NCBI GenBank assembly: GCA_963742735.1
Contig: CAVUMN010000004.1
Location: forward strand, 1-64,000
DNA: 64,000 nt
Source: an uncultured Actinomycetes bacterium
Lineage (GTDB): Bacteria; Actinomycetota; UBA4738; JBBDTT01
Direction of reading: 5' to 3'
The position numbers were made by a program, and so were the translations under genes. The notes beneath the pieces are model-generated. The model was given only the letters and a program-made list of their open reading frames with translations, searched no databases and was not told the origin of the DNA. Shown here one piece after another: positions 1 to 12,982 of this stretch (positions within the stretch are counted from its first letter, which is position 1; each line of letters starts with the position of its first letter).

Positions 1-1
1 G

Positions 2-549
2 GACGGCCACGTGGATGTGTACGACGGCGTGAGCTCGCCGACCGGCGAGGCCGCCGACATGCCCGTGGGCGTGGCGCTCGGACGCGCGCCCGAGTCCTGG
101 GTGGCCGCGGCCGGCGGGCCCAGCACGGAGGCCCGAACGTGGTCGCCCTCGGCGCCCGTGACGAGGAGGAGCGCGCGGACATCGCGCCACTGATCGCAGG
201 TGAGCTCTCCGAGCTGCGCGTGGTCGCACCACCGGAGATGCGCTCGGCCGGCCCCGGTGCCGCCGCCCGCTCGAGCGCCGAATGGCTCGCCGAGCGGGCC
301 GGCAGCTTCTGGCTTCACCTCGACGTGGACGTGCTGGACGAGGCCGCCATGCCCGCCACCGACTACCTCATGCCGGCCGGGCTCGAGTGGGACGAGCTCG
401 CGGAGCTGCTGGCTCCGCTCGGGGCGTCGCCCGCGCTCGCCGGCGTGAGCCTCGCATGCCTCAACCCGGAGAGGGATCCCGGCGGCCGGCTCACCGAGCG
501 CACCAGCGCGCTTGTGGCGGGCGCATTCGATGAGAGCGGTTCCCCCTAG
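2..549 (+). CDS. Arginase/ureohydrolase family protein, C-terminal part (5' end outside window; apparent frameshift near 130-140)
   Basis: DGHVD...TGEAADMP motif at the window start, then HLDVDVLD...MPA...GL and NPERD in ORF 139..549; these are the arginase-family metal-binding motifs. Confidence 0.85.
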   Translation, partial: RPRGCVRRRELADRRGRRHARGRGARTRARVLGGRGRRAQHGGPNVVALGARDEEERADIAPLIAGELSELRVVAPPEMRSAGPGAAARSSAEWLAERAGSFWLHLDVDVLDEAAMPATDYLMPAGLEWDELAELLAPLGASPALAGVSLACLNPERDPGGRLTERTSALVAGAFDESGSP

Positions 550-606
550 CGGGGGACGGCCCCCGTCGGATAGCGTGCCCGAAGCTGTCGACAGAGGGGG
601 AGTGCA

Positions 607-2649
607 GTGAAGAACGGGTCGTTCCTGCGTCGTGTTATTTTGATGTGCACGGTGCTCGGCGCCCTGCGCTGGCCCGCTGTGGCGTTCGCGCATCTGGAGC
701 GGCCGTCCTACTGGCCCGATCCCGCCCCCGACACGTCGGTCTGCCCGGCCGCGGGCGGCAAGGTGCCGGAGCTGCGCTCGCTCGAGTCGGCGGTCACCGG
801 CAAGGGGGCCGGCAAGGTCCGCGTCGTGTGCCAGGGCCGCGGTGGCTGGAAGTCGCTCGAGCTGCTCGCGAGTCGATCGAGAAGGCGCGCAAGCACGGCT
901 ACCGGATCCGGCCGAGCCAGCCGAAGCTCTACCTGAGCCGACGCGAGGCCTCGAGCTGCTGCTGGCAGAACCTCGCGCTCGCGAGAAGTGCAAGTACAAC
1001 GAGATCCAGCCGGCCGTCTTCGCCTCGGGCAACAACGACCGCGTGGTCGTCATGCCGGGCCGCTACACCGAGCCGACCTCGCGCGCCCAGCCGCTCAACG
1101 ACCCGCGCTGCGCCAACCTCACCCAGACGGACTCGGGCGGCGCCAAGACGCCGAGCTACCGCTACCAGGTCACCTGCCCGAACGACCAGAACCTCGTCTA
1201 CGTCCAGGGCCGCGCGGTCTCGCGACGCGCCCCGCCGCAGCCCCCGCTGACCAACCGCCAGGGCATCCCCGACCTCGGGCCCTGCGTGCGCTGCAACCTC
1301 CAGCTCGAGGGCACCGGCGTGCTGCCCACCGACGTGATCATCGACGGCGCCTCCGACTACGAGTCGGGCGATGCCGAGGCGCGGCCGCGCACGCTGCACA
1401 AGCACGTGATCATGCGCGCCGACCGCGCCGACGGCTTCGTGGCGCACAACTTCACCGCCCGCGGCGCGCTCGAGCACGGCATCTACATCGAGGAGACCGA
1501 CGGCTACCGGATCGACACGGTGAAGATGTTCTGGGCGGCCGACTACGGCAACCTCACCTTCACCTCCGACCACGGCCTCTACACGGACTGCGACGGATTC
1601 GGCGCCGGCGACGCGGTGCTCTATCCGGGCGCCGCGCCCGAGACCGGCGAGCAGGCCGACCTGTCCTTCTATCCCGACGCGCCGCGCATCAACACCACGG
1701 TGCGGCGAGTGCGACATGCACGGAAGCGTGCTCGCCTACTCGGGCTCGATGGGCAACGCCGTGCGGATCACCAACAACCACATCTACGGCAACACCGCCG
1801 GGATCTCGACCGACACCATCTCCGCGGGCGGCCATCCCGGCTACCCGGCGGACAGCGTCCAGGTGGACCACAACTACATCTACTCGAACAACCTGGACCT
1901 GTTCGCCCGAACCCGCCGGTCGACCCGGTGGTGGGCATCCTCCCCTCGGGCGTGGGCATCTTCTGGGCCGGCCACAACAACGGCCGGGTGCACGACAACT
2001 GGATCTGGGACAACTGGCGCGACGGCGCCTTGCTGCTCTCGATCCCGGACTTCCTGGTCACGCCCGAGGGCAACATCAACCCGGGCGGCTCGTGCAAGAG
2101 CGACCCGCGTGAACCCGCGCTGTCCACCTCGTGCGGCAACCGCTACTACGACAACCACCTCGGCCGCGTGCCGCAGGGGCTTCAAGCCGTTCGCCGCCCT
2201 CTACGGCTTCGGCAACAACGTGGGCCCGACCCGCGGCGTCGCGAGGAACGGCGTGGACTTCTGGTGGGACGAGGGCGGCCTCGGCACCGTCGTCGGGCAA
2301 CTGCTGGTTCAACAACGAGGGCTCCGACGGCACCGACGGCCAGCGTGACCGGCTCCGGGGTCGGCGACGGCAACGACTCGCTGCCGTCCGACTGCACCAG
2401 CACCGCGGCGGCGACGGGGTGAAGCTCTCCTACCTGCTGTCCTGCTTCCTGGCGCGCGAGGGCGACCTGCCGCCCGAGCAGTGCGACTGGTACACGCTGC
2501 CGCCGCAGCCGGGCTCGCCGGCCGCCGCGGCCAAGCAGAAGGCGTTCGAGGAGGGCGCGCGCGAGTTCCTCAAGACCGCGCGGGCCAAGCAGCTGCAGGA
2601 CAAGGTCGGCGAGGTCACGGGCATCGCCGAGTCGGAGCCGCCGGAGTAG
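607..2649 (+). CDS. Secreted right-handed parallel beta-helix (pectin-lyase-like) protein, several apparent frameshifts
   Basis: Signal peptide (..AVAFA|HLERPSYWPDP); IQPAV..VVVMPGRY; NFTA..HGIYIEETDGY; NNHIYGNTAGI; DNWIWDNWRDG repeats spread across ORFs 607, 842, 1716 and 2131. Confidence 0.7.
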
Positions 2650-2651
2650 GC

Positions 2652-3014
2652 ATGACGGCGCGGCCAATCGCGGCGGGCGGCCGCGCTCCTCGCCGCGGTG
2701 CTGCTGGCGCCTGCGGCGGCGGACCGGCCAGACAAGAAGGCCAAGCCCGTGGGCGAGATGCTCGTGGGCTCGGTGGCCCCGATGGCCCAATGCACGGACT
2801 GGAACGGGGGCACCCGCGACGAGCGGATGGCGACGATCGACGACATCCGCGAGCAGATGAACCTCAAGGACAGCGCCGTCCAGACGCCCGAGCTGTCCGA
2901 CAAGGCCGCCTACCGGGTGCTCGACGGCATCTGCAGCCGGCCCTACGCCGGCAGGTTCCGGCTCTACAAGCTGTACGCGCGCGCGGACAGCTTCGCGCCT
3001 TCGCCGAGGACTAG
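2652..3014 (+). CDS. Small secreted hypothetical protein (two Cys), apparent frameshifts at both ends
   Basis: ATG 2652 directly after the upstream stop; hydrophobic N-terminus; core AQCTDW...LDGICSRPYAGRFRLYKLY in ORF 2698; ends ..AFAED* at 3014 in another frame. Confidence 0.55.
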   Translation: MTARPIAAGGRAPRRGAAGACGGGPARQEGQARGRDARGLGGPDGPMHGLERGHPRRADGDDRRHPRADEPQGQRRPDARAVRQGRLPGARRHLQPALRRQVPALQAVRARGQLRAFAED

Positions 3015-3065
3015 GCGGGGCGGGCGGTGTGGCTCGTCCAAGAGCCTCACCGCCGGACTCCGCCC

Positions 3066-4400
3066 CTACCTCCCGCTCTCGACCGCCCCTGCCGCGCCGA
3101 CATCCCCCTGCCTGCGCACAGCGCTTCCGTTGCCATTGCCGTTCCCGCGCACGCGGATCCGGCGCTGGCGTCCGCCATTCGTGGCCGGCCGCGGGCGGCT
3201 GCCCACCGCCGCGATCGTCCTCACGGCCTCCTCGCCGGCCGCCGTGGATGTGTCGATCTCCGGATCGAGCGTCAACAGCGACACGCCGCGGCCGGAGAGC
3301 CGGCCGAGCAGGTCGTCGATCTCGGCACGCGACCGCCCGAGGCGCGCCACGTCCGACACCACCAGGCCGGTGGCCCGGTCCGCGGCGAACTGCTCGAGCG
3401 CGTAGATGATGCCCGGGCGCTCGAGCGTCTCCTGCTCACCCGGATTCTCGTCGCGGACCACCCCGATCAGGCGGAAGCCGCGACGCTTGCAGAGCCGCTC
3501 GATCAACTCGATCTGAGCGAACAGCTCGGCATGGCGCTCCGGATACGTGGTCGGAACGGTCACGTAGCCCAGCACCGCCGCACCCGGACGCAGCGCACCC
3601 TGGAGCTCCCACGGCTCGGGGTGTGCCTGAAGCGCCGGCGGCAGCGGCGTCTGCACCTCGGCGTACCGGACCCAGAACGGCAGCTTCCGTGAGGGGTCGA
3701 GCACGTAGAAGCGGCTGCCCTTGGCCCGCTTCTCCTTGTCCCGCAGCTCCGGGATCTCCACCGCGTAGGCGGTGCCGCTGAAGCGGCCGATCCCAGGATC
3801 CTCGCTCTCTCCCGCGAGCTCGAGGCCCCTGCCGAGCGGGACGATCGCCGGCGCCGGGTGGCGGCGGCGCATGACCGTCACGCCGTACCGCACGAGCAGC
3901 GCCGCTCCGAGCCCCAATCCAGCCGCCGCCAGCGCGATCAGGATCCAGGGCCGTCCCTCCTCACCCGCGGGCGAGGCGCGGCCGGTGTGGCGGTCCGGCC
4001 GCGGGCGTCTCGTGGGCCGCTTCACGCGAGCGGCCGGTGCCGGGGTATCGGTTCGGCTGCGAACCTCCGCCAGGCGCGCGGCGAGCGCCGACCGCGTCCG
4101 CGGTCCAACCACGCCGTCTGCCTTCACGTGCCAGTGCCGCTGCGCGCGGCGCACCGCGCGCTCGGTCCTTGGACCGAACCTGCCGTCGATCGGACCTGGT
4201 CGCTCCCCGACCGCCCGCAGGCGGCGCTGGAGCACCTTTACGCGCTGCGAGCCATCCGGCTTGGCAAATCCGGCACCGCTGGCCAGCAGGCCGCGCGTGG
4301 GCTGCTCTGCCGCCAGTGCGGCCTGGGGGATGCCCAGCAGCAGCACCATCCCCAGCAGCAACCCGGCGCCGGTGGGCCAGGCTCTCGTTGTTCCAAACAT
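3066..4400 (-). CDS. Membrane protein: signal peptide + peptidoglycan-binding domain (PG_binding_1) + TM helix + degenerate serine-recombinase (resolvase) catalytic domain
   Basis: VKVLQRRL..GPIDGRFGPRTERAV..ADGVVGPRT (PG-binding); PWILIALAAAGLGLGAALLV (TM); VLGYVTVP..Q...RPGI..LVVSDVARLGRS..LDPEIDTSTAAG (resolvase fold, lacking YxRxS); RBS AAGGAG upstream. Confidence 0.8.
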   Translation of the reverse strand: MFGTTRAWPTGAGLLLGMVLLLGIPQAALAAEQPTRGLLASGAGFAKPDGSQRVKVLQRRLRAVGERPGPIDGRFGPRTERAVRRAQRHWHVKADGVVGPRTRSALAARLAEVRSRTDTPAPAARVKRPTRRPRPDRHTGRASPAGEEGRPWILIALAAAGLGLGAALLVRYGVTVMRRRHPAPAIVPLGRGLELAGESEDPGIGRFSGTAYAVEIPELRDKEKRAKGSRFYVLDPSRKLPFWVRYAEVQTPLPPALQAHPEPWELQGALRPGAAVLGYVTVPTTYPERHAELFAQIELIERLCKRRGFRLIGVVRDENPGEQETLERPGIIYALEQFAADRATGLVVSDVARLGRSRAEIDDLLGRLSGRGVSLLTLDPEIDTSTAAGEEAVRTIAAVGSRPRPATNGGRQRRIRVRGNGNGNGSAVRRQGDVGAAGAVESGR

Positions 4401-4477
4401 CTTTCACTCCTTGTTCGAGCGGAAAACGAGCCGGACGTCTGGCGTCCGGCGTAGAGCCAGCTAGCGCTGCTAGCCGG
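4384..4477 (-). promoter_or_regulatory. Set of hairpins covering the upstream stop codon and the RBS/start codon of the 3066..4400 gene
   Basis: Minus strand: CCGGCTAGC-agc-GCTAGCTGG (4477..4457, contains the TAG); GCCGGACG-ccaga-CGTCCGGC (4450..4430); CTCGTTTTCC (4430..4421) pairs with GGAAcAACGAG (4394..4384), enclosing AAGGAG and the ATG. Confidence 0.5.
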
Positions 4478-5434
4478 GGCGCTCGAGGAGTGCGAGATGG
4501 GCCTGCGGCCTGAGACAGGCCGCGGCCTCGATGAGCCGGCTCGAGCGCAGGGCCGCGAGGCCCATCAGCGCGAGGAACGCGGCAAAGACTGCTCCGGCGA
4601 AGGAGCCGCTGCCCGAGGAGGCGCTGCCCATCGAGGGTCCGCCGGGACCCTGAGGCGACGGCGGTGGCTCCGGGTCGGGCGCGGGACCGCCACCTCCGTG
4701 CGGGGACTCGGCGAGCCACCGTCCGGGCTGGGGGCGCCGCTCACGCCGATGGCCGGGGGCACCTGCAGCGCGGCTCCGGCTCCGGCCGCGGCTCATCCAG
4801 AGATCGCGCAGATCGGCGCCGGGGAGCGGCCTGGTCTTGGAGATGTTCTCGACCGTGGGCGGAGCCAGGGGCGACGCCGATGCCGGCAGGTTGAGGACGA
4901 CGGGAGCAGGCGGTGTCGATCCGATGTCGGTGGGAGCGGGTCACCGCCGGGCCGAGCGGAGGATCGGATCCGGGGCCGTCGATGACCGGGCTGGGACGGC
5001 GGGCACCGCCGGGTCCACGACCGGATCGACGGGCGGGTGGACACGAGGGTCGGTGATCGGTCACCGGATCCACGACCGGATCGACGGCCTGGATGACCGG
5101 ATCGACGGCGGGGTCGATGACCGGTCGACCGGAGTGACCACCGGATCGACGGGACCGGATCGATCACCGGGTCCACGACCGGGTCGACGACGTCCGTGAC
5201 CGGATCCACCACCGGATCGACGCCGGCGGGACGACGGGATCGAGCACCTCCGGTACCGCGGGGAGCGCCGGCGCCTCGGTGAGGTCGGAGACGACCGGGA
5301 CGACGTCAGGGATCGCGACGGGCAGCTGCGCGGAGGCCGCGGCGGGGAGGATGCAGGCGCCGACGAGCGCCAGGGCGAGAGACGACCGCCCTGATTCCCC
5401 AGGTCCCTACGGCTCTGTGTCCGTCCCCTGCCAA
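4470..5434 (-). CDS. Hypothetical exported Pro/Val/Asp-rich protein ending in a hydrophobic segment and LLERPG-stop; multiple apparent frameshifts
   Basis: Probable TTG start ~5434; SLALALVGACILPAAASA signal peptide; VDPVVDPVTDVVDPVVDPVIDPV repeats; C-terminus FAGAVFAAFLALMGLAALRSSRL..HLALLERPG*. Confidence 0.6.
4975..5245 (-). repeat. Degenerate ~12-bp coding tandem repeat (VDPV/IDPV units)
   Basis: Recurrent gaccggatcgac / gaccgggtccac units on the + strand. Confidence 0.7.
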
Positions 5435-5595
5435 TCCTCTAGCTCCAGCTGCGCTTTCCGTGCGGTTGCCGATGACTCCAGAAGCATTACCCGTCTGCAC
5501 CGATTCTCCTGCGCCAAATTGGGCAAACGCAACTGGCTTATGCCGCAAAGTCCGGCTTTTTACACCTGCGGCCGGTCGGAACGGTGCACTCACGG

Positions 5596-8500
5596 TCAGA
5601 ACCCCAGCGCGTGGATCGCGATCGACTGGTCGTCGCTGATGGGCGGGCCGAAGGGGCTGGTGGGCCCGTCGGCGAAGGCATCGATGTTGTAGCGCCGCGA
5701 GCCGGCCACGGATTCCCACGAGTAGCGCGCGACGTTGTGCTCGACGCTCGTCTGGATGCCGAGCCAGTACCAGCCGGGCCTGAGATCGACCGTGTACGGC
5801 AGATAGAGGCCCACCCATCCCGGCGGACGGCCCGCGCTGACGGTGGACTCGAAGCTGCTGGTGAGCAGCGCGCCGGGCTGGCCCGCCTGGTCGGCGTAGA
5901 TGAGCCCGCGCAGCTTCTGCGATCCGGTGCCGCCCCCGTTGCCGTCCGCGTGGACGGTCAAGGACCGAACCGTGGCCGGGAACCACAGGAAGAACCGCGA
6001 GGCGCGCTTGACGTTGGCGCTCGTGGCGCTGAACGAGCCGCCCGGGTTCCCCCGCCCGAACAGGAAGCCGACGGAGGGCGCCGGCACTGCCGCCGACGCG
6101 AGCCGGCCCCAGTTGCCCGCATCGTCCTGGTAGAGGACCGCCACCCGGGTGGTCTTCGAGCCGATGTCGGCCACCGTGTGCGACTCGGTCTGCCCGGATC
6201 CGGCGCTCGCGTCGAAGTCGCCCACCACGGTGCCGTCCGTGGGGTGGTTGATCGGGCCCGTGGACTTGACGATCCGGTAACGGCGGGCCTGGCCGCACTG
6301 CCAGTCGTCGCCGGGTGCCGTGAACGTGAGCGTGGCCGAACGGCCGTTGCGGGTCACGCCGAGCTGGGTGGGCGTGCCCGGTGGGCGGCTGTCCACGCCG
6401 TACGCGCCGGTGGACCACTCGTCGTGACGGGAGGTCCACCACTCGTCGTTGCCGCCGCAGGCGGGCCTGTCGGTATCCCAGAGGAAGGAGTTGCCCTCGC
6501 GGGTGAGCGCTGCCACCTCCAGGTTCCCGTCGCCGTCCACGTCGCCCACGGCGGGAACGCCGAACAGCCACCCGCCCGTGAACTTGGGCCAGCCGGCGCC
6601 CTCGACGCCGGTGGAGTTGATGTTGCGCAGGTAGTAGAGCCCCGTGCCGACGATCACCTCCTTGCCCGCCGCGGCGGACACGTCGGCCACGGCCGGGCTG
6701 GACAGCAGCTGGTAATCCTCGACCGCCTGCGGGAAGGCCGGTAGGGACGCCCCTGTCTGCCCGTTCCACGCCTGCATCACGTGGTTGTAGGGAAGGTTCT
6801 GGCCGACCGCCACGCCGAGGTTCACCAGCTGGTTGAGGGTGAGCCCGCCCTTGACCACCTCGGGTCCCGCGAGCGTGGAGTCCAGGTCCGCGACGATCGG
6901 GTTCTCGAAGAGATTCAGCACGCGCACCTTGTCCACGTGCTCCCCGCCCGCGGGCGAGGCGTCGTAGGTCGTGACCGGCGAGCCGTCACCGTTGTGGGCC
7001 TCCACGTCGCCCGTGGCCACGTTTCCGATCACCTCGAGCAGCGGGTCGGCATCCACGTTGGCCAGCACGTGGTCCACCCCGGGCCCGACCAGCGGAAGCG
7101 CGTCCGGCACCGCGCCGTTCGGCTTGATCGGCCAGCCGGGCAGGACCGCCCCGTTCGCCCCGAGGGCGTAGGTGCGCCCGCTGCCTCCCAGCGCGTTCGC
7201 GAGGATGTTGGTGACTCCACCGCGGATCGTGCCGGCCAGATCGAGCGGGCCCGTCGGGGTGCCCGGCGCCGTGGGATCGGGGTCGAACTCGGCGGTGGGC
7301 ACGACTATCTCCGGACGGGCGTCGCCGGCGATGTTGCCCAGCGCGGCCGTGTTGATGATCTCGGCCCCGTCGAGGGCGGGATCCCTGAGCTTGCTCGGGA
7401 AGCCCGGCAACGGATTGCCCTGGCCGTTCCAGGCGTACACGTGCTGGTCGAGGGACGGCACGACGATCTCGAGGGCCGGCCCGCCCACCAGGTCTCCGAG
7501 GGTGGGGGAGGCGATGAAGCCGCGCTTGATGTGGTTCTCGCGCGTGCGCAGAGCGGGGGTCGACTTCGACGGGTCGATCCGGACCGGGAACCCGGGGACC
7601 ACGCTGCCGTCGGCGTTCCACGCGTACACGTGCTCGCCCGCCGAGTCCACGATCTCGGGCTCGAGGTCGCCGTCCACGTCGCCGATCGCCGGCGTGCGCA
7701 GGACCTCGCGCGGGGGCGTGACCTGGGCGTATGAGGGCGCGCCCGGGTGCACGTTCGCGTAGGTGAGCGTGCGGACCGGCTGGCCGCCGTTGAAGCTCCC
7801 GAGCGGTGTGCCGTCGGCCTTGAGCACGTTCAGCTCACCGCTCGAGTCGGCCTCCACAACGTCCAGCTCATTGTCGCCGTCCAGGTCGAACAGCCGCTGC
7901 GAGGCCTCGCCGCCCGTGCCGGTGTGCCGCGACCAGCCGGAGTGCTGCGTGGTGTCGCGGTAGGCGAACAGCACCTTGCGGTCCTCGCCGCGGTTGCCCG
8001 CCGTGTCGGTCACCACGACCCGGACCGTGAAGGCGGGCTCGTTGGGGTCCTTGTCGCCCGGGCCCTTGGCGGGTGCGGTGGGATCGGTGGTGGCCCCGCC
8101 GCCCGTGCGCGCGTCGAGCGCGGAGCGCACGGTGTTCAGGTTGATCGTGCCGAGCGTCCCGTCGATCGGCGCCGAGGCGCTCTGCGTGCTCACGTCCTGG
8201 AAATCCGCCTCGGCCGGCTCGATGCCGGGCGCCCACTGGAGCTTCCACGTGTACCCGGCCGCCCGCTTGGCGGACAGCCGCCCGCTGATCTGAACCGATG
8301 TCTGGCGGGCCAGGTTGAGCGGAGCGAACCAGTCGGGCCCCGTGATGAGGGCCTGCGGCGGGATCTTGCCCTGGTCGATCCGCTCGAGCGCGAGGCCGAG
8401 GTCGGGACGCCCGTAGCCGAAGTGCTGGTCCCAGCCGACCTGTGCGGGATCGGCCACGCCCGTGCCGGTGGTGTTCTGCGCCACCACGTCCTCGGCGGTG

Positions 8501-9903
8501 AGCGTGAGGAGCTGCTTGATCTCGTTCGGCTCGAGCGGCGCCGCGGGCGTCTTCTGGCGCCCGAAGGAAGCCACCAGTCCCGCCGCTCCCGCCGCCTGCC
8601 CGGTGGCCTGCGATCCGGTGACCGCCGGCATGACCACGTGGGCGTGGCCGCCGTACTGGGTCGTGCCCGAGTTTCGGAACCAGGTGCCGATCGGGGCCGA
8701 GGTGGGGATCCCGAGGTCGCCGAGGAAGGCGCCTATCTCGGCGCTGCTCTGACCGAGCCCCTCGACATCGGACACGCTGCCCTGCACCTGCATCGCCTCG
8801 TCGTAGACGGTCGGGATGTTGTGGTCGGCCGTGTTGAGGTCCGAGGAGACGATCGCGAGGAAGACGCCCTTGCGGTACGCCTCCCTGAACGCCGCCCGGC
8901 CGAAGCGCGAATTGAAGAGGCCTCCAACCGCGCCCTCCACGACCTCGATGTTGTTGTCCGCGGCGTAGAGGACGGCCTGGGAGAAGTTGTTGACGTCCAT
9001 CACGAAGGTGTCCCACGACCGCAGCGGCACGATCTGGCAGCGCGGGCAGACGCCGGTGCCACCGGTCCCCTCGTTGGTCTGTGACCCCGCCTCCGCGGCG
9101 CGTCCCGAGCCGTGGTTGGAGGCGCTCGAATAGCTCGACGCGTCGTACGGGTCGTTGTCGTCGTCGAAGAAGTCCCAGCCGGCGATGTCGTCGACATAGC
9201 CGTTGGAGTCGTTGTCGCCGTCGCCGTCGAAGGCGGCGAGCAGGTCGCTCGCGTCGAGGATCGTGTCCGCCTCGGCGTGGCCGTCCGTGATCGACACGCG
9301 CGGGTCGTTGGCGAAGTCGTCGACGTCGAACGCGCCGTCGTTGTTGCAGTCGTCCTGGGCGCAGGCGGCGCCGCCGGTGGTCTGCGGGGTGGGCAGCTCG
9401 CCCTCGTTGAGCGCGATCTTCTTCCGGAGCTGGCCGTTGTTCCAGCGGATGCCGGTGTCGAGGATCGCGATCTCCACGTCCGGGCGGCCGATGGACCGCT
9501 TCCAGGCACGGTCGGCCGACACGCCCGACACCTGGCCCAGCGGGTTGCGGCCCGCCGTGGTGTTCTGCGCCTGAAGGCGCGTGACGTGGGCGTCGAACGG
9601 GGGCTTGTACAGGGCCGTGAGCTGTGAGGCGCCCGGCGCGAACCCGAAGCGCTCGAGCTCCTCGTCGAACACGTTCGAGCAGGTGGCGCCGCCCTCGTTG
9701 TCCGTCTCGCAGGCGTCGAAGTCCGGGTCGTTCGGCGCGTTTAGCCGGACGCTCTCGTCCGGGTTGGATCCCGGGAAGGCGCCGAGCGCGGGCGCGGCAG
9801 CGAGCAGGCACACGGTCAGTGCGGCTACAGCGAGGCGGCGGGCTCTTCCTCGGATCTTCAGGCTCCTGGGGCGGCGGGCGGCAAGCGTTTCACATCCGGG
9901 CAC
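5596..9903 (-). CDS. Secreted S8 (subtilase) peptidase with Ca-binding DxxDG loops, FG-GAP/VCBS repeats, an FN3-like domain and a C-terminal beta-sandwich
   Basis: ILDTG (Asp), NHGSGRA (His), VTGSQATGQAAG (Ser region); NGYVDDIAGWDF; DLDGDNELDVV, GDVDGDLEPEIV, GDVDGDGNLEV; signal LLAAAPALG. Confidence 0.85.
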   Translation of the reverse strand: MPGCETLAARRPRSLKIRGRARRLAVAALTVCLLAAAPALGAFPGSNPDESVRLNAPNDPDFDACETDNEGGATCSNVFDEELERFGFAPGASQLTALYKPPFDAHVTRLQAQNTTAGRNPLGQVSGVSADRAWKRSIGRPDVEIAILDTGIRWNNGQLRKKIALNEGELPTPQTTGGAACAQDDCNNDGAFDVDDFANDPRVSITDGHAEADTILDASDLLAAFDGDGDNDSNGYVDDIAGWDFFDDDNDPYDASSYSSASNHGSGRAAEAGSQTNEGTGGTGVCPRCQIVPLRSWDTFVMDVNNFSQAVLYAADNNIEVVEGAVGGLFNSRFGRAAFREAYRKGVFLAIVSSDLNTADHNIPTVYDEAMQVQGSVSDVEGLGQSSAEIGAFLGDLGIPTSAPIGTWFRNSGTTQYGGHAHVVMPAVTGSQATGQAAGAAGLVASFGRQKTPAAPLEPNEIKQLLTLTAEDVVAQNTTGTGVADPAQVGWDQHFGYGRPDLGLALERIDQGKIPPQALITGPDWFAPLNLARQTSVQISGRLSAKRAAGYTWKLQWAPGIEPAEADFQDVSTQSASAPIDGTLGTINLNTVRSALDARTGGGATTDPTAPAKGPGDKDPNEPAFTVRVVVTDTAGNRGEDRKVLFAYRDTTQHSGWSRHTGTGGEASQRLFDLDGDNELDVVEADSSGELNVLKADGTPLGSFNGGQPVRTLTYANVHPGAPSYAQVTPPREVLRTPAIGDVDGDLEPEIVDSAGEHVYAWNADGSVVPGFPVRIDPSKSTPALRTRENHIKRGFIASPTLGDLVGGPALEIVVPSLDQHVYAWNGQGNPLPGFPSKLRDPALDGAEIINTAALGNIAGDARPEIVVPTAEFDPDPTAPGTPTGPLDLAGTIRGGVTNILANALGGSGRTYALGANGAVLPGWPIKPNGAVPDALPLVGPGVDHVLANVDADPLLEVIGNVATGDVEAHNGDGSPVTTYDASPAGGEHVDKVRVLNLFENPIVADLDSTLAGPEVVKGGLTLNQLVNLGVAVGQNLPYNHVMQAWNGQTGASLPAFPQAVEDYQLLSSPAVADVSAAAGKEVIVGTGLYYLRNINSTGVEGAGWPKFTGGWLFGVPAVGDVDGDGNLEVAALTREGNSFLWDTDRPACGGNDEWWTSRHDEWSTGAYGVDSRPPGTPTQLGVTRNGRSATLTFTAPGDDWQCGQARRYRIVKSTGPINHPTDGTVVGDFDASAGSGQTESHTVADIGSKTTRVAVLYQDDAGNWGRLASAAVPAPSVGFLFGRGNPGGSFSATSANVKRASRFFLWFPATVRSLTVHADGNGGGTGSQKLRGLIYADQAGQPGALLTSSFESTVSAGRPPGWVGLYLPYTVDLRPGWYWLGIQTSVEHNVARYSWESVAGSRRYNIDAFADGPTSPFGPPISDDQSIAIHALGF

Positions 9904-9934
9904 CCTGCGTGCCCGTACTACGGGGGGCTACGGC

Positions 9935-11898
9935 TCACTCGTAGTTGTCGGTGCGGCAGGGGTTGCCGCCGCACACGTCGATCACCGCGCTGTTCGGCGA
10001 GAGGAACGCCGACTTCTGGTTGCGTGCCGCCACGGTGTTGCGCGGGAACGCGTGCGGATCCAGCCCGCCGCGGTTGGGGATGTTCAGCGCCGGCGGCGGC
10101 GGTGTCTGAGGGCCGCCGTCCCAGTAGACGATCGCCGAGCCCTTGAACGGGAAGCTCCCGATGCTCGGGATGCCGAACAGCGGCGTCTTGTCGGTGGAGC
10201 GTCCGGCGTCGACCGCCGGCCGGTAGGCGCGGGCGCCGATCGTCCGCGCCTCCACGTCGGACATGGCGTTGGCCACCTGGTGGTCGCCGATTGCTACATG
10301 GAGGAGCACCGTGTGCTTCGGGGTGTGCCGCGGCGGCCTATTGGTCACGTGGTAGGCCCAGCCGTTGGTCTCGCCGCGGTCCCAGAGCATCTGGATCAGC
10401 GACACGATCAGCAGGCGCGTGCCGCCGTCCGGGTAGGCCGGCCTGAATACGGCGTTGTAGGTGTCGAAGTCGACCGAGCGCGGGAGCAACGTGCCGTAGT
10501 TCATCGTCGCCACGCCCAGCACGGCGCGCCGCCAGTCGGGCGCGACCGCGGTGGCCAGGCCGCCCAGGATTGCTCCCTGCGAGTTCGAGTCGAAGTAGAG
10601 CTGCGACGTGTCGAGCAGCTTCTGCGCGCCGGCGCCCTGGAACGCGGCGTTGGCCGCGAAGCCCTGTGGATGCGCGAGCAGCCGCCCCAGGTAGAGCGTG
10701 TTGAGCACCCCCTGCTGGAGGCGGTCGGCCAGCGACGGGAACTTCGAGATGTCCTGGAGGATCGAGACCGCGTTGGGCACATCGGCGCTCGACATGCCCG
10801 CCCAGTCGGTGGCGCAGAACGTGAAGTCGTGCTCCGCGCTCATGTTCTGGATGTTGATCTCCTCGATCTGCTCGTGGGAGCCGAGCAGGCCGTGGCCATA
10901 GAGGGCGATCCGCGAGGGGGCGGCGAAAGCGGCGCGCGGGATGTTGCACTGGAACGGCGCCAGCGCGACGTTGCCGGGAATCTGCGTAGGGAGCGCGTCG
11001 CGCTTGGAGCTCGAGTAGTGGTAGCGCGAGCCAGGCGGGCAGCCGGCCTTGTCGAGGTAGCAGGGGACCGTGAACGTGCCCGAGATCCTGCGGGCGATGA
11101 GCGGGTCCTGGGCGGGTGTGAAGTTCTGGACCGAGCTGATCGAGAACGCCGGCGCCCGGCCCTGGATGACCCCGTCGCCCAGCTTGGTGTCGCCCAGCTG
11201 CCTGAATGCGTCGGCGCGGATCTTGAGCAGGCGGGCCGTGAGCGACTTGTCGCTCGCCACCGTGAAGTTCCACGTGAGGTACACGCTCGAGCGCCTGACC
11301 TTGGCCTTCTTCAGGGCCTTGCGGAGCTTGCTCGAGGTGGTGCGCCAGAGGCCGCGCGGGGCGCTGTGCTTCAGGTTGCGGAGCACGACCACGTAGCGGC
11401 GCCCCGACACCAGGTTCTTCGCCGGGTGGATGATCAGGTTGCGGCTCGCGGCCGGCGCGTCGCCGGCGTCAAGCTCGCCCCAGACGATCTGGCGCCTGCC
11501 GGTCTTCTCGTCGAGCAGCAGGAGCGGCTGCCTGCGGCCGCGGTACCTGGCCAGGTCGTTCACGGGCACGATCCCCGAGCGCCTGAACTGCGCCTGTGTC
11601 TTCAGGAAGGGCAGGTGCACGGTGATCGGCTGGCCCGGGCTGAAGCCGTCGTTGCGGTTCCACTCGCGCGGGTCGATCCGCGAGCCGCGCGTGTTCGCCG
11701 GCATCGCCGAGCGGACGAAGGCCACGCGCCGGCCGGTGGGCGTCTTCGAGTCGCGCTTGGTGAGCGCGTGGTCGTTGGGGAACGGGAGCAGGCAGCCCTT
11801 CTTCGGCACGCCGTTGCACTTGGCCGCCTCCGCTCCGCGGGCAGCGCCAGGGCGGTGGAGGCGAGGGCCAGGATCACGAGAAGCGGTAGGCGGCGCAT
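9935..11898 (-). CDS. Secreted alpha/beta-hydrolase-fold protein with N-terminal Ig-like domain (frameshift near 11830)
   Basis: Signal MRRLPLLVILALASTALA (ORF 11602..11898); CLLPFPND, NRNDGFSP; YGHGLLGS oxyanion-type motif; SNSQGAILGG elbow; GDHQV; DPH. Confidence 0.7.
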
Positions 11899-11929
11899 GG
11901 CGGCACCGTACCGCGCAGGCTCGGAACGC

Positions 11930-12982
11930 TCAGTCGCCGGTGAGTGCGCGGAACGTCTGCTCGGCCTCGGCCACGAGCGTCGCCACCACCTCGGCCGCCG
12001 GAACCGCGCGAGCGAGCAGCGCGCCCTGACCGGCGAACATGGGGAAGAAGTCCGCGGGATCCGCGCCCGCTTCGCGCAGCGCCGCGGTCAGTGACATCTG
12101 CGCCGGATAGGGCAACGGCTCCGTGACCTCCTCGGTGCCGCGGTTGCGCAGTACGCGCGCGGGCCGGCCGGAGTACGCGCGCGTGATCGTGGTGCGCTCG
12201 GCGTCGGCGGCGCGCAGCGCCTCGCGGTAGAGAGCCGGGGTGGCGCTTTCCGGGCAGGCGAGGAAAGCCGTGCCCACCTGTGCGCCGCCGGCTCCCAGCG
12301 CCAGCGCCGCGGCCAGCCCGCGGCCGTCCGCGATGCCGCCCGCCGCCACGACCGGGACGGACACGGCGTCCACCACCTGCGGCACGAGCGCGAGCGTGCC
12401 CACCGGCCCGTCGTCGCCCTCCACCAGATAGCTGCCGCGGTGGCCACCGGCCTCGCCACCCTGAGCCACCACGGCATCGACTCCGCGCTGCTCCAGATCG
12501 CGCGCCTCGGCAACCGTGGTGGCGCTCGCGAGGATCGTGATACCCGCCTCGCGACAGGCGGCGAGCGCGTCGCCTCCCGGCAGCCCGAAGTGGAAGCTCA
12601 CGACCGCGGGGCGGATCTCGAGCAGCGCCTCGAGCCGCTGCTCGTCAAAGGCGAACGGCGGTGTGGAAGGCTCGGGCGGGTCACCGAGTCCGAGCTCCTC
12701 GTACAGCGGCGCGATCGCGGCCCTGGCCGCGGCGGCCGCGGCGGCGTCCACGCGGGGTGGCTCGTGGCAGAAGAAGTTGAGCTGGAACGGCCTGTCCGTG
12801 GAAGCGCGGACCGCCGTCGCCTGCTCCCGGAGCTCGGCCACATCGAGGACGGCGGACCCCAGGCCTCCCAGCCCGCCCGCCGCGCTGACCGCGGCCGCGA
12901 GCTCCGGCGTGGCCATCCTGGCCATGGGCGCCTGGAGGACCGGATGCTCCACTCCGAGGAGTTCGGTGACCCGCGTGCGCAC
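11930..12982 (-). CDS. Nitronate monooxygenase family flavoprotein
   Basis: HPVLQAPMA, AVSAAGGLG, VVSFHFGLP, AQGGEAGGHRG, AAGGIADGRG, GTAFL, SGRPAR. Confidence 0.92.
   Translation of the reverse strand: MRTRVTELLGVEHPVLQAPMARMATPELAAAVSAAGGLGGLGSAVLDVAELREQATAVRASTDRPFQLNFFCHEPPRVDAAAAAAARAAIAPLYEELGLGDPPEPSTPPFAFDEQRLEALLEIRPAVVSFHFGLPGGDALAACREAGITILASATTVAEARDLEQRGVDAVVAQGGEAGGHRGSYLVEGDDGPVGTLALVPQVVDAVSVPVVAAGGIADGRGLAAALALGAGGAQVGTAFLACPESATPALYREALRAADAERTTITRAYSGRPARVLRNRGTEEVTEPLPYPAQMSLTAALREAGADPADFFPMFAGQGALLARAVPAAEVVATLVAEAEQTFRALTGD

Follow-up and report, generated by a model that had tools for sequence, protein, structure and literature searches.

The gene pair and its products

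Two adjacent genes, here called gene A and gene B, were analysed in a 64,000-nucleotide stretch of DNA (the window) from an uncultured Actinomycetes bacterium (GenBank assembly GCA_963742735.1, contig CAVUMN010000004.1, positions 1 to 64,000). Gene B encodes a predicted bitopic envelope protein composed of a signal peptide, a peptidoglycan-binding domain (PGBD), a transmembrane (TM) helix, a beta-domain, a dead serine-recombinase fold, and a basic tail, in this order. Gene A lies directly upstream. The features are listed below, where aa numbers refer to the gene B product and pLDDT is the predicted local distance difference test score.

4470..5499 (-): gene A, the partner gene, which in relatives has a tail ...LRPQAHLALLERPG-stop; its 5′ limit was mapped from the start candidates of the related locus L004
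4430..4450 (-): GC-rich hairpin between the gene A stop and the gene B ribosome-binding site
3066..4400 (-): gene B, a 444-aa open reading frame (ORF) with an ATG start and without internal stop
4308..4400 (-): predicted signal peptide, aa 1-31, with cleavage predicted after A-L-A at 28-30 as read from the sequence
4083..4247 (-): PG_binding_1 (PF01471), aa 52-106, in a folded unit of aa 40-117; predicted to be extracytoplasmic
3951..4049 (-): unconserved extracellular linker, aa 118-150; pLDDT 41-48
3867..3947 (-): single TM helix, aa 152-178, N-out/C-in according to the AlphaFold2 model and positive-inside statistics
3651..3848 (-): juxtamembrane cytoplasmic beta-domain, aa 185-250; pLDDT >90, or 84.7 when folded alone
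3201..3578 (-): serine-recombinase catalytic fold, aa 275-400, nucleophile-less and with a truncated helix E
3552..3569 (-): dead active-site motif G-Y-V-T-V-P, aa 278-283 (G-Y-x-R-x-S in the enzymes)
3069..3200 (-): basic disordered C-terminal tail, aa 401-444, a decayed helix E and arm ending in ...GAVESGR

The codon-position GC contents of gene B (0.76/0.57/0.87, in a genome of 72% GC) are the pattern of a real gene, and a Shine-Dalgarno sequence, GGAG, lies 6 nt 5′ of the ATG. A previous sequence-only reading had placed a signal peptide, a PG_binding_1 domain, a single TM helix, and a resolvase-fold domain on this one ORF, which proved correct by Pfam, AlphaFold2, and inspection of the sequence. 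Both Pfam matches exceed the curated cut-offs: PF01471 with E 3e-15 (56.6 bits, cut-off 23) and PF00239 with E 1.8e-13 (51.3 bits, cut-off 23.3; aa 279-399, nt 3204-3566, profile positions 4-120 of 145). An AlphaFold2 model made from 133 family sequences (mean pLDDT 78.5) has four confident modules on disordered linkers. The pLDDT of the PGBD is 94-97, and that of the recombinase domain is 88-97 over most of aa 275-400. The PDB sequence matches of the N-terminal domain are peptidoglycan-binding domains.

The N-terminus reads as a Sec-like signal with an n-region Arg, a hydrophobic stretch at aa 12-25, and A-L-A at 28-30; a hydrophobic N-terminal stretch is found in 113/131 family members. The TM helix is followed by R-Y-G-V-T-V-M-R-R-R-H. 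Across the 131 members, the mean number of Lys and Arg residues is 1.02 in the 15 residues before the TM helix and 4.06 in the 15 residues after it, and 123 of them are richer after the helix than before. From these positive-inside statistics and the signal-type N-terminus, it is therefore predicted that the PGBD is outside, where it would hold peptidoglycan, and that the recombinase fold is inside.

The beta-domain had not been noticed before. It is 67-74% identical (BLAST/alignment) even to paralogues that are only about 50% identical overall. It has no Pfam match and no PDB match at E<=0.001 in Foldseek, so that its fold is left unassigned here; the best likenesses are chromo-barrel/Tudor/SH3-like (E 0.12-1, TM-score up to 0.5). 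The ESM Atlas gave no usable match for the beta-domain, and only generic resolvase clusters (0.80 or less) for aa 175-444.

A conserved partner gene, gene A

Another feature that goes beyond the sequence-only reading is gene A, which is the strongest functional clue obtained. It was found by aligning the DNA upstream of gene B in five short-form loci (short forms end like gene B, while long forms continue with a complete helix E and a helix-turn-helix (HTH)-like module). In all five, a conserved frame ends 68-69 nt 5′ of the gene B ATG. A first neighbour clustering (BLASTP, 50% coverage rule) had missed gene A, because it is repetitive and divergent. In the relatives, gene A encodes 300-800 aa with a signal peptide, tandem repeats, a Gly/Ser-rich stretch, a TM helix, and a cytoplasmic tail of about 25 residues. 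The repeats are rich in Pro/Asp/Val/Thr and differ from locus to locus. The tail ends in ...LRPQAxIALLERPG-stop with the consensus ...(E/D/Q/H)RPG-stop, and its variants include WRPV.FIA.LERPD, LLDRPG, LLHRPG, LLQRPG, PQQRPG, and LNERPG. A co-directional upstream ORF with a TM helix, basic residues, and a terminal ...RPG/RPD-stop was found in 25/25 loci of the membrane form (the window, L004-L015, L018, L021, L086, L087, L089-L091, and L101-L105).

Among these 25 loci are the short and the long paralogue of each of three genomes and four distinct pairs from a single genome; the B proteins encoded at some of them share no more than 30-36% identity with the gene B product. The carrier genomes have 1 to 5 diverged gene B paralogues, each with its own A partner. 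A TM-tailed partner was found in none of ten soluble TM-less relatives (five with an intact GYxRxS and five dead); at one of them, L095, the upstream frame ends in VVERPG with no evident TM helix. As a control in the whole genome of the window (3.08 Mb), only 5/24,876 stop-to-stop frames (>=60 aa) end in [EDQH]RP[GD], and only one of the five, the frame upstream of gene B, has a hydrophobic stretch before the tail. Gene A has no match in Pfam or NCBIfam, sorting-signal models included, and an insensitive word-indexed search with its last 86 residues gave one match, a hypothetical protein. Since the A-B adjacency survives duplication and deep divergence, A and B are likely to work together. The invariant adjacency suggests a conserved two-gene envelope cassette with gene B as the second gene.

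All five short-form loci conserve the stem of the hairpin between the two genes, and in L010 and L008 its outer pair has changed from G-C to A-T, a compensatory replacement. A T-run follows the hairpin only in the three closest short-form loci. The hairpin is possibly an attenuator or a processing site which sets the A:B ratio. It was also observed that gene A ends in LLERPG and that aa 326-330 of gene B, in the Arg45 loop, are a nearly invariant LERPG, which may be coincidence or mimicry.

In the window, gene A does not run in one frame but in several; only its final 156 codons (4470-4940) form an open frame. Compared with the intact gene A ORF of L004 (327-349 aa), there are 12 indel runs in 4401-5620, ten of which are not multiples of three, and these frameshifts account for the scattered frames. 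Two short-read contigs of run X1 have the L004 state at ~4709, ~4786, ~4939, and ~4993; they are about 95% alike, so they come from a related strain. The simplest reading is an assembly error in GC-rich repetitive DNA, with real decay in this strain as the other candidate. A 12-nt tandem array of about 16 copies at 5063-5243 encodes the (V/I)DPV-type repeats of gene A. One metagenome contig skips 128 nt there, which fits a variation of repeat number between strains. The gene B frame itself is intact despite the broken gene A. In the gene B linker, codons 131-141 are locally shifted in frame relative to L004 by a 7-nt insertion and a 1-nt deletion, and one independent short-read contig (run X2) shows the L004 state. 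The L004 orthologue of gene B is 97% identical, and the frame change touches no domain.

The recombinase fold has a dead active site

Serine recombinases are known as soluble enzymes of mobile elements or phase variation. The catalytic fold of gene B is the same as that of the PF00239 enzymes (Tn3/gamma-delta, Gin/Hin, and TP901-1/PhiC31/Bxb1). A phmmer search matched gene B with gamma-delta resolvase (2gm4, E 1.5e-5). In Foldseek, nearly all of the 38 PDB matches at E<=0.001 are serine-recombinase catalytic domains; the best TM-score is that of TP901-1 integrase (3bvp_B, target-normalised TM-score 0.82, root-mean-square deviation 2.4 Å, 127 columns), and PhiC31, Bxb1, gamma-delta, Gin, and Sin are also matched. 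The motifs R328-P-G, A352-R-L-G-R-S357, and D383-T-S-T..G are present, and YVTVP stands at the active site, all as the sequence-only reading had described.

By alignment to gamma-delta resolvase, gene B has lost Arg8 (Thr281), Ser10 (Pro283), and Asp67 (A352), while it keeps Y6 (Y279), D36 (D317), R45-P-G, R68 (R353), and R71 (R356). The view that the resolvase is catalytically dead is thereby borne out. In the model, helix E is limited to aa 387-400 (about 14 residues) and is followed by S-R-P-R-P and disorder. The tail (aa 401-444; pLDDT <50, no Pfam match) can be aligned with the distal part of helix E in gamma-delta resolvase, and its ...GAVESGR end is conserved in the short-form clade. 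A 552-aa large serine recombinase of the same genome (contig C2, L085) serves as an internal control, as it reads VVYLRVST...VDRLARS. It shares 34% identity with gene B over 95 residues.

Olorunniji & Stark (2009; PMC2794168) describe Y6, R8, S10, D36, R68, and R71 as crucial for cleavage, and no resolvase mutation reported there strongly inhibited site binding. Since R8 and S10 are lost, the family is without two of the six crucial residues, the nucleophile included. Much of the phosphate-binding pocket is retained. Judged from its residues, the fold of gene B should be unable to cleave DNA by the canonical route. Gene B differs from the enzymes in other respects as well: it lacks an HTH, it is predicted to be membrane-anchored behind a secreted PGBD, it has an extra beta-domain, and it sits at a stable chromosomal locus with an obligate neighbour, gene A. 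By its lack of the nucleophile and of Arg8, its truncated helix E, its missing DNA-binding domain, and its genomic context, it would thus fall outside the serine recombinases. In the databases, its relatives are named 'peptidoglycan-binding protein' or 'DNA invertase Pin-like recombinase'; the latter is wrong as a functional name.

The ratios of nonsynonymous to synonymous substitution rates (dN/dS) were roughly estimated by the Nei-Gojobori method between the window and two orthologues:

dead resolvase domain: 0.15-0.26
beta-domain: 0.16-0.30
PGBD: 0.22-0.40
linker: 0.23-0.50
tail: 0.24-0.64

The dead resolvase domain is the most constrained part of gene B, and the cytoplasmic modules are under tighter constraint than the PGBD. 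Gene B appears to be a working pseudo-enzyme under purifying selection, and no relic. The neighbours of gene B (an arginase-family gene, a beta-helix protein, and an S8 peptidase) are syntenic in four other genomes (L004, L005, L008, and L010), in line with the earlier remark that no transposon is nearby; there is no mobile-element context among these neighbours, where no search for res/att-type repeats was made. The idea of a repurposed fold stands on the family-wide dead site, the purifying selection, and this absence of a mobile element.

The 552-aa recombinase (G000:C2:51800-54100, ORF 495-2153 on the reverse strand) is the only genuine serine recombinase in the genome. Its C-terminus (GFEPLTS...) resembles a translated 3′ half of a tRNA, suggesting that the element integrated into a tRNA gene. 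Cys304 of gene B, present in 132/133 members, was considered as a family-specific residue and rejected. The resident recombinase has a Cys at the aligned position, and Cys304 is therefore ancestral.

Family-wide dead active site and secondary loss of the HTH

PF00239 and PF01471 occur together in 74/111 database matches according to precomputed Pfam annotation, and the fusion is not unique to this assembly. Full-length orthologues of gene B, at 57-97% identity, are present in at least 14 other assemblies. An exhaustive representative search gave 209 proteins at E<=1e-30, many of which were driven by PGBD repeats. Among 252 proteins retrieved, there are 165 domain matches (164 proteins) of the dead-resolvase type; such counts are of the sequences and loci retrieved rather than a full census, and related loci are not independent. 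None of the 165 domains keeps both Arg8 and Ser10. The residues of 133 aligned full-architecture members are as follows (Tn3 numbering):

Tyr6: Y in 131 of 133
position 8: T in 65, S in 48, R in 2 of 133
position 10: P in 70, A in 14, S in 13, R in 10, G in 7, and others, of 133
Asp36: D in 103, E in 30 of 133
Arg45: R in 126 of 133
position 67: not conserved among the 133
Arg68: R in 108 of 133
Arg71: R in 72 of 133

The census suggests that the dead site is ancestral to a large family.

Most family members are about 100 residues longer than gene B. In ten variant forms examined with Pfam, the Resolvase profile reaches position 144 of 145, and PF07508 (Recombinase domain, N-terminal HTH-like part) is above the cut-off in five. 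One member, P0079, aligns to residues 3-145 of Gin invertase, helix E and the GRxxGRP arm included. With a custom hidden Markov model, a helix E plus HTH-like C-terminal module was found in 96/164 family proteins. The remaining 68 comprise the clade of gene B, other short-tailed groups, fragments, HATPase_c_2-type forms, and one DivIVA form. P0072 has a Pfam-confirmed HATPase_c_2 in place of the HTH, and the tails of P0070, P0078, and P0139 are alike. These variants have an RsbW/SpoIIAB-like domain, with up to three PGBDs outside. P0045 runs into a DivIVA domain, a single sequence which may be a read-through of a neighbouring gene. Four members of the gene B clade (P0036, P0037, P0043, and P0044) are without a PGBD.

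In a quick IQ-TREE tree of 146 domains with a midpoint root only (a careful search was unfinished), the HTH-less clade of gene B (23 rows, SH-aLRT 94) is nested in a clade of 54 rows (SH-aLRT 99; 27 with HTH and 27 without) whose remaining rows are mostly HTH-bearing, and this larger clade itself sits within the HTH-bearing diversity. The short C-terminus is conserved in about 14 sequences and is thus not a truncation of this assembly. Given the nested position and the alignment of the tail to helix E, the HTH therefore appears to have been lost secondarily in the gene B clade. The earlier statement that no HTH follows the resolvase fold holds for this clade but not for the family as a whole. 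Short and long forms occur together in three genomes (G294, G295, and G297). All PF00239 matches in five related carrier genomes belong to the dead family.

In the class-level sample around the genome of the window (G000), the cytoplasmic part was matched at E<=1e-8 in 8/294 genomes, while the full module was found only in G000. The other seven have weak resolvase-only matches (E 1e-9 to 1e-14) in frames of 216-555 aa. This sample is without the carriers named Thermoleophilaceae and includes an unpublished genome, G182, with two weak resolvase-only matches. The family-level sample contains one other genome, which has no match.

Soluble dead relatives (L088, L095, L096, L097, and L099) were observed in genomes of the family of G298. 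They are 216-319 aa in length and have a resolvase domain and an HTH without TM helix or PGBD; their motifs, in which Arg8 is lost, are GYVTVAA, GYVCVGS, GYASVPP, GYVSSGE, and GYVCATA. Soluble relatives with an intact GYxRxS are found in the same bacterial family and are 34-48% identical to P0079. The soluble Arg8-less relatives may be domestication intermediates.

A proposed two-protein envelope module and its alternatives

The reading that I prefer, with a probability of roughly 45%, is a two-protein envelope module, in which the tail of A docks on the beta-domain/dead-recombinase module of B and in which a DNA output is ancestral and has been lost here. Gene B would be a type-I bitopic protein whose single PGBD outside fixes the A-B pair to the wall. 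Gene A would be a secreted, proline-rich tandem-repeat protein, presumably wall-spanning, with a C-terminal TM anchor. The two may be adjacent in the membrane and form a complex, with the cytoplasmic tail of A docked on either the beta-domain or the retained cationic pocket of B. In the long forms, with helix E and HTH, the complex would be a membrane-tethered DNA binder that either anchors DNA or acts as a wall-to-gene relay. The clade of gene B would have lost this DNA output, and B would serve A there as an adaptor or scaffold. Where a genome also has an HTH-bearing paralogue, the short form may modulate it as well. The fungal proteins Wsc1 and Mid2 have a signal peptide, an extended Ser/Thr/Pro-type wall region, one TM helix, and a short tail which recruits a cytoplasmic partner. 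This is an analogy of layout for gene A only, since the sequences and the kingdom are unrelated.

Several points weigh against this reading. An HTH-bearing paralogue was not found in the genome of the window (88.9% complete); modulation of a paralogue therefore cannot be the only role of gene B. The family-wide adjacency can also fit co-regulation or a shared pathway without physical contact. A 'peptide-binding barrel' for the beta-domain is a weak resemblance, with E 0.12 at best. If the splitting of gene A in the window is real, gene B either works without A or is on its way out. Finally, all full-length carriers among the 80 fetched loci are metagenome-assembled genomes.

It is doubtful, if conceivable, that the cassette is a trans-envelope relay which links DNA binding on the cytoplasmic face of the membrane to the state of the wall in a single step. 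Gene A would then be a wall-spanning probe and gene B a peptidoglycan-anchored pseudo-recombinase, whose R45/R68/R71 pocket or adjacent beta-barrel would clamp the ...ERPG-COO- of A. ToxR and CadC are membrane-bound one-component DNA-binding regulators, and ToxR works with a co-encoded bitopic partner, ToxS. Gene B shares with them a single pass and an extracytoplasmic domain, while a cytoplasmic DNA-binding domain is found only in its long-form relatives and not in gene B itself. The topology is opposite to theirs: the signal peptide and the sensor are N-terminal, and the DNA-binding part of the long forms is C-terminal. Moreover, the DNA-binding unit of the long forms is recombinase-derived and is not a winged helix.

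It is rather unlikely that gene B is only a non-covalent wall anchor or export helper for A, with the cytoplasmic module as a structural clamp unconnected to DNA or signalling. The invariant adjacency, the short form without an output domain, and a hairpin that could set the A:B ratio are all compatible with it, and the C-terminus of gene A is laid out like the tail-type sorting or anchor signals. LPXTG/sortase, PEP-CTERM/exosortase, and PGF-CTERM/archaeosortase are C-terminal sorting or anchor systems. Gene A is likewise a predicted secreted passenger with a Gly-rich stretch, a TM helix, and basic residues beside one dedicated protein. In contrast to those systems, its motif is cytoplasmic, lying beyond the TM helix at the extreme C-terminus, and gene B has only PGBD and Resolvase matches and no sortase- or exosortase-type domain. 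A simple anchor would leave unexplained the HTH in 96/164 members and the anti-sigma-kinase-like HATPase_c_2 in others. It also accords poorly with the tighter constraint on the cytoplasmic part than on the PGBD and with the four members that have no PGBD at all.

A tether between the DNA or nucleoid and the envelope, serving segregation, division-site choice, or nucleoid organisation, is also unlikely, to a very slightly greater degree. The long forms would use the HTH, while the short form would bind DNA without sequence specificity through its Arg-rich tail and the R45/R68/R71 pocket. The canonical DNA-binding apparatus is indeed complete in the long forms, the three pocket residues are kept in 126, 108, and 72 of the 133 members, and the tail of the short forms has a conserved, strongly basic character. 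P0045, fused to or read through into a DivIVA domain, and the retention of DNA binding by resolvase active-site mutants (PMC2794168) point in the same direction. On the other hand, the 1 to 5 diverged paralogues with their own A partners look more like signalling or recognition modules, and a tether leaves the partner gene unexplained. P0045 is a single sequence and possibly a gene-calling read-through, and the DNA binding of the tail is a prediction.

There is little to recommend the idea that the protein is still an enzyme with a moved nucleophile (Thr/Ser at position 8, or Tyr6), which would carry out phosphoryl transfer on DNA or another substrate at the membrane. Tyr6 is kept in 131/133 members, Thr/Ser occupies position 8 in 113/133, and D36, R45, and R68 are largely kept, which is unusual for a 'dead' pocket. 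Nevertheless, R8 and S10 are among the six residues whose mutation greatly cuts cleavage (PMC2794168). Position 67 is not conserved, position 10 is Pro in 70/133 members, and gene B has a truncated helix E and no DNA-binding domain.

The sequence-only reading had proposed that gene B acts on real recombinases as a dominant-negative partner or that it is a self-standing module for oligomerisation which relays wall binding. Both are highly improbable. Enzymes with this fold form dimers and tetramers, and the genome of the window contains one genuine large serine recombinase. However, gene B is only 34% identical to that recombinase over 95 residues, and the dominant-negative idea is weakened because the five carrier genomes, with dead-family PF00239 matches only, offer no genuine partner. 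As for oligomerisation, only about 14 residues are left in the gene B model of helix E, which is the canonical dimer interface. A homodimer prediction (two copies of aa 180-420 with the family alignment) gave no answer, with a score of 0.00, and counts neither for nor against this idea.

Less credible still is a checkpoint protein for DNA damage or cell division which would combine Bacillus subtilis YneA and YneB in one chain. YneA is a wall-binding protein with a LysM domain and a single TM helix, and the mycobacterial ChiZ has a LysM/TM architecture with an Arg-rich disordered cytoplasmic part. A wall-binding membrane protein and a resolvase-like protein, two chains in the YneA-YneB system, are one polypeptide in gene B. 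The wall-binding domain is LysM in YneA and ChiZ and PG_binding_1 in gene B, the topology differs as well, and the YneB analogy is loose. The NCBIfam model of YneB (NF049883) is the second-best NCBIfam match of gene B, but its 28.5-30 bits against a cut-off of 175 indicate generic resolvase similarity. YneB is SOS-induced and is encoded in an operon with the division inhibitor YneA (PMC6051672). Finally, a decaying relic or a gene-calling artefact, to which the many indels of the assembly, the frame-broken gene A and 607-2649 gene, and the compensated frame change in the linker might point, is refuted by the intact frame of gene B, dN/dS well below 1 in all folded modules, the full-length orthologues in at least 14 other assemblies, and the high model confidence.

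Significance

In a search of the full-text literature, with subscription journals and supplements outside its reach, no account turned up of PGBD-TM-resolvase proteins, of serine-recombinase pseudo-enzymes, of a membrane-anchored, wall-binding recombinase lineage without the nucleophile, or of partner A. Gene B would be a known fold with known domains in an undescribed architecture and an undescribed cassette, and its function is what I infer from the comparisons above. A DNA-cutting fold seems to have been domesticated: roughly half of its active-site residues are still there, and most members also retain the DNA-binding apparatus in full. The recombinase domain would be tied to the envelope and to a dedicated partner. 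The TM helix, the basic residues, and the ...RPG-stop make up a very specific new C-terminal signature, carried by repetitive surface proteins of actinobacteria of the Thermoleophilia type, whose envelopes have hardly been studied. If the long forms are wall-tethered DNA binders, they would be a new class of one-step transmembrane regulators. If the trans-envelope relay is true, a serine-recombinase fold would for the first time be seen domesticated into a receptor or transducer module, with HTH-less (gene B), anti-sigma-kinase, and DivIVA-linked output variants.

Neighbouring genes and state of the window

No conserved neighbour besides gene A was found beyond vertical synteny. The 24 runs listed include no RNA run that holds the locus. 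A scan of 2600-5700 gave no sigma-70 promoter, Rfam gave one chance-level match in window positions 1-12000, and the PADLOC anti-phage defence models matched no family for P0001 and P0024. The other genes around the cassette are as follows:

607-2649 (+): beta-helix gene spread over three frames; L004 has an intact 680-aa ORF with PF13229
2698-3405 (+): small convergent ORF, 125 aa in L004 and 102 aa in L005, with no Pfam match
5596-9903 (-): 1435-aa secreted S8 subtilase with FG-GAP-like repeats
9935-11809 (-): 624-aa protein of no known family

The breakage of the beta-helix gene is due either to assembly indels or to a pseudogene. The small convergent ORF is open to 3405 in the window, which gives an apparent overlap of 340 nt with gene B; this is probably an indel near the 3′ end of the small ORF and no true overlap. 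The S8 subtilase and the 624-aa protein lie upstream of the cassette and are syntenic in L004, L005, L010, and partly L008. The identity to the L004 genome is 98.2% in 3015-12000 and 88.9% in 1-3012. This drop at the 3′ end of gene B, at ~3012-3015, may be a recombination breakpoint between strains.

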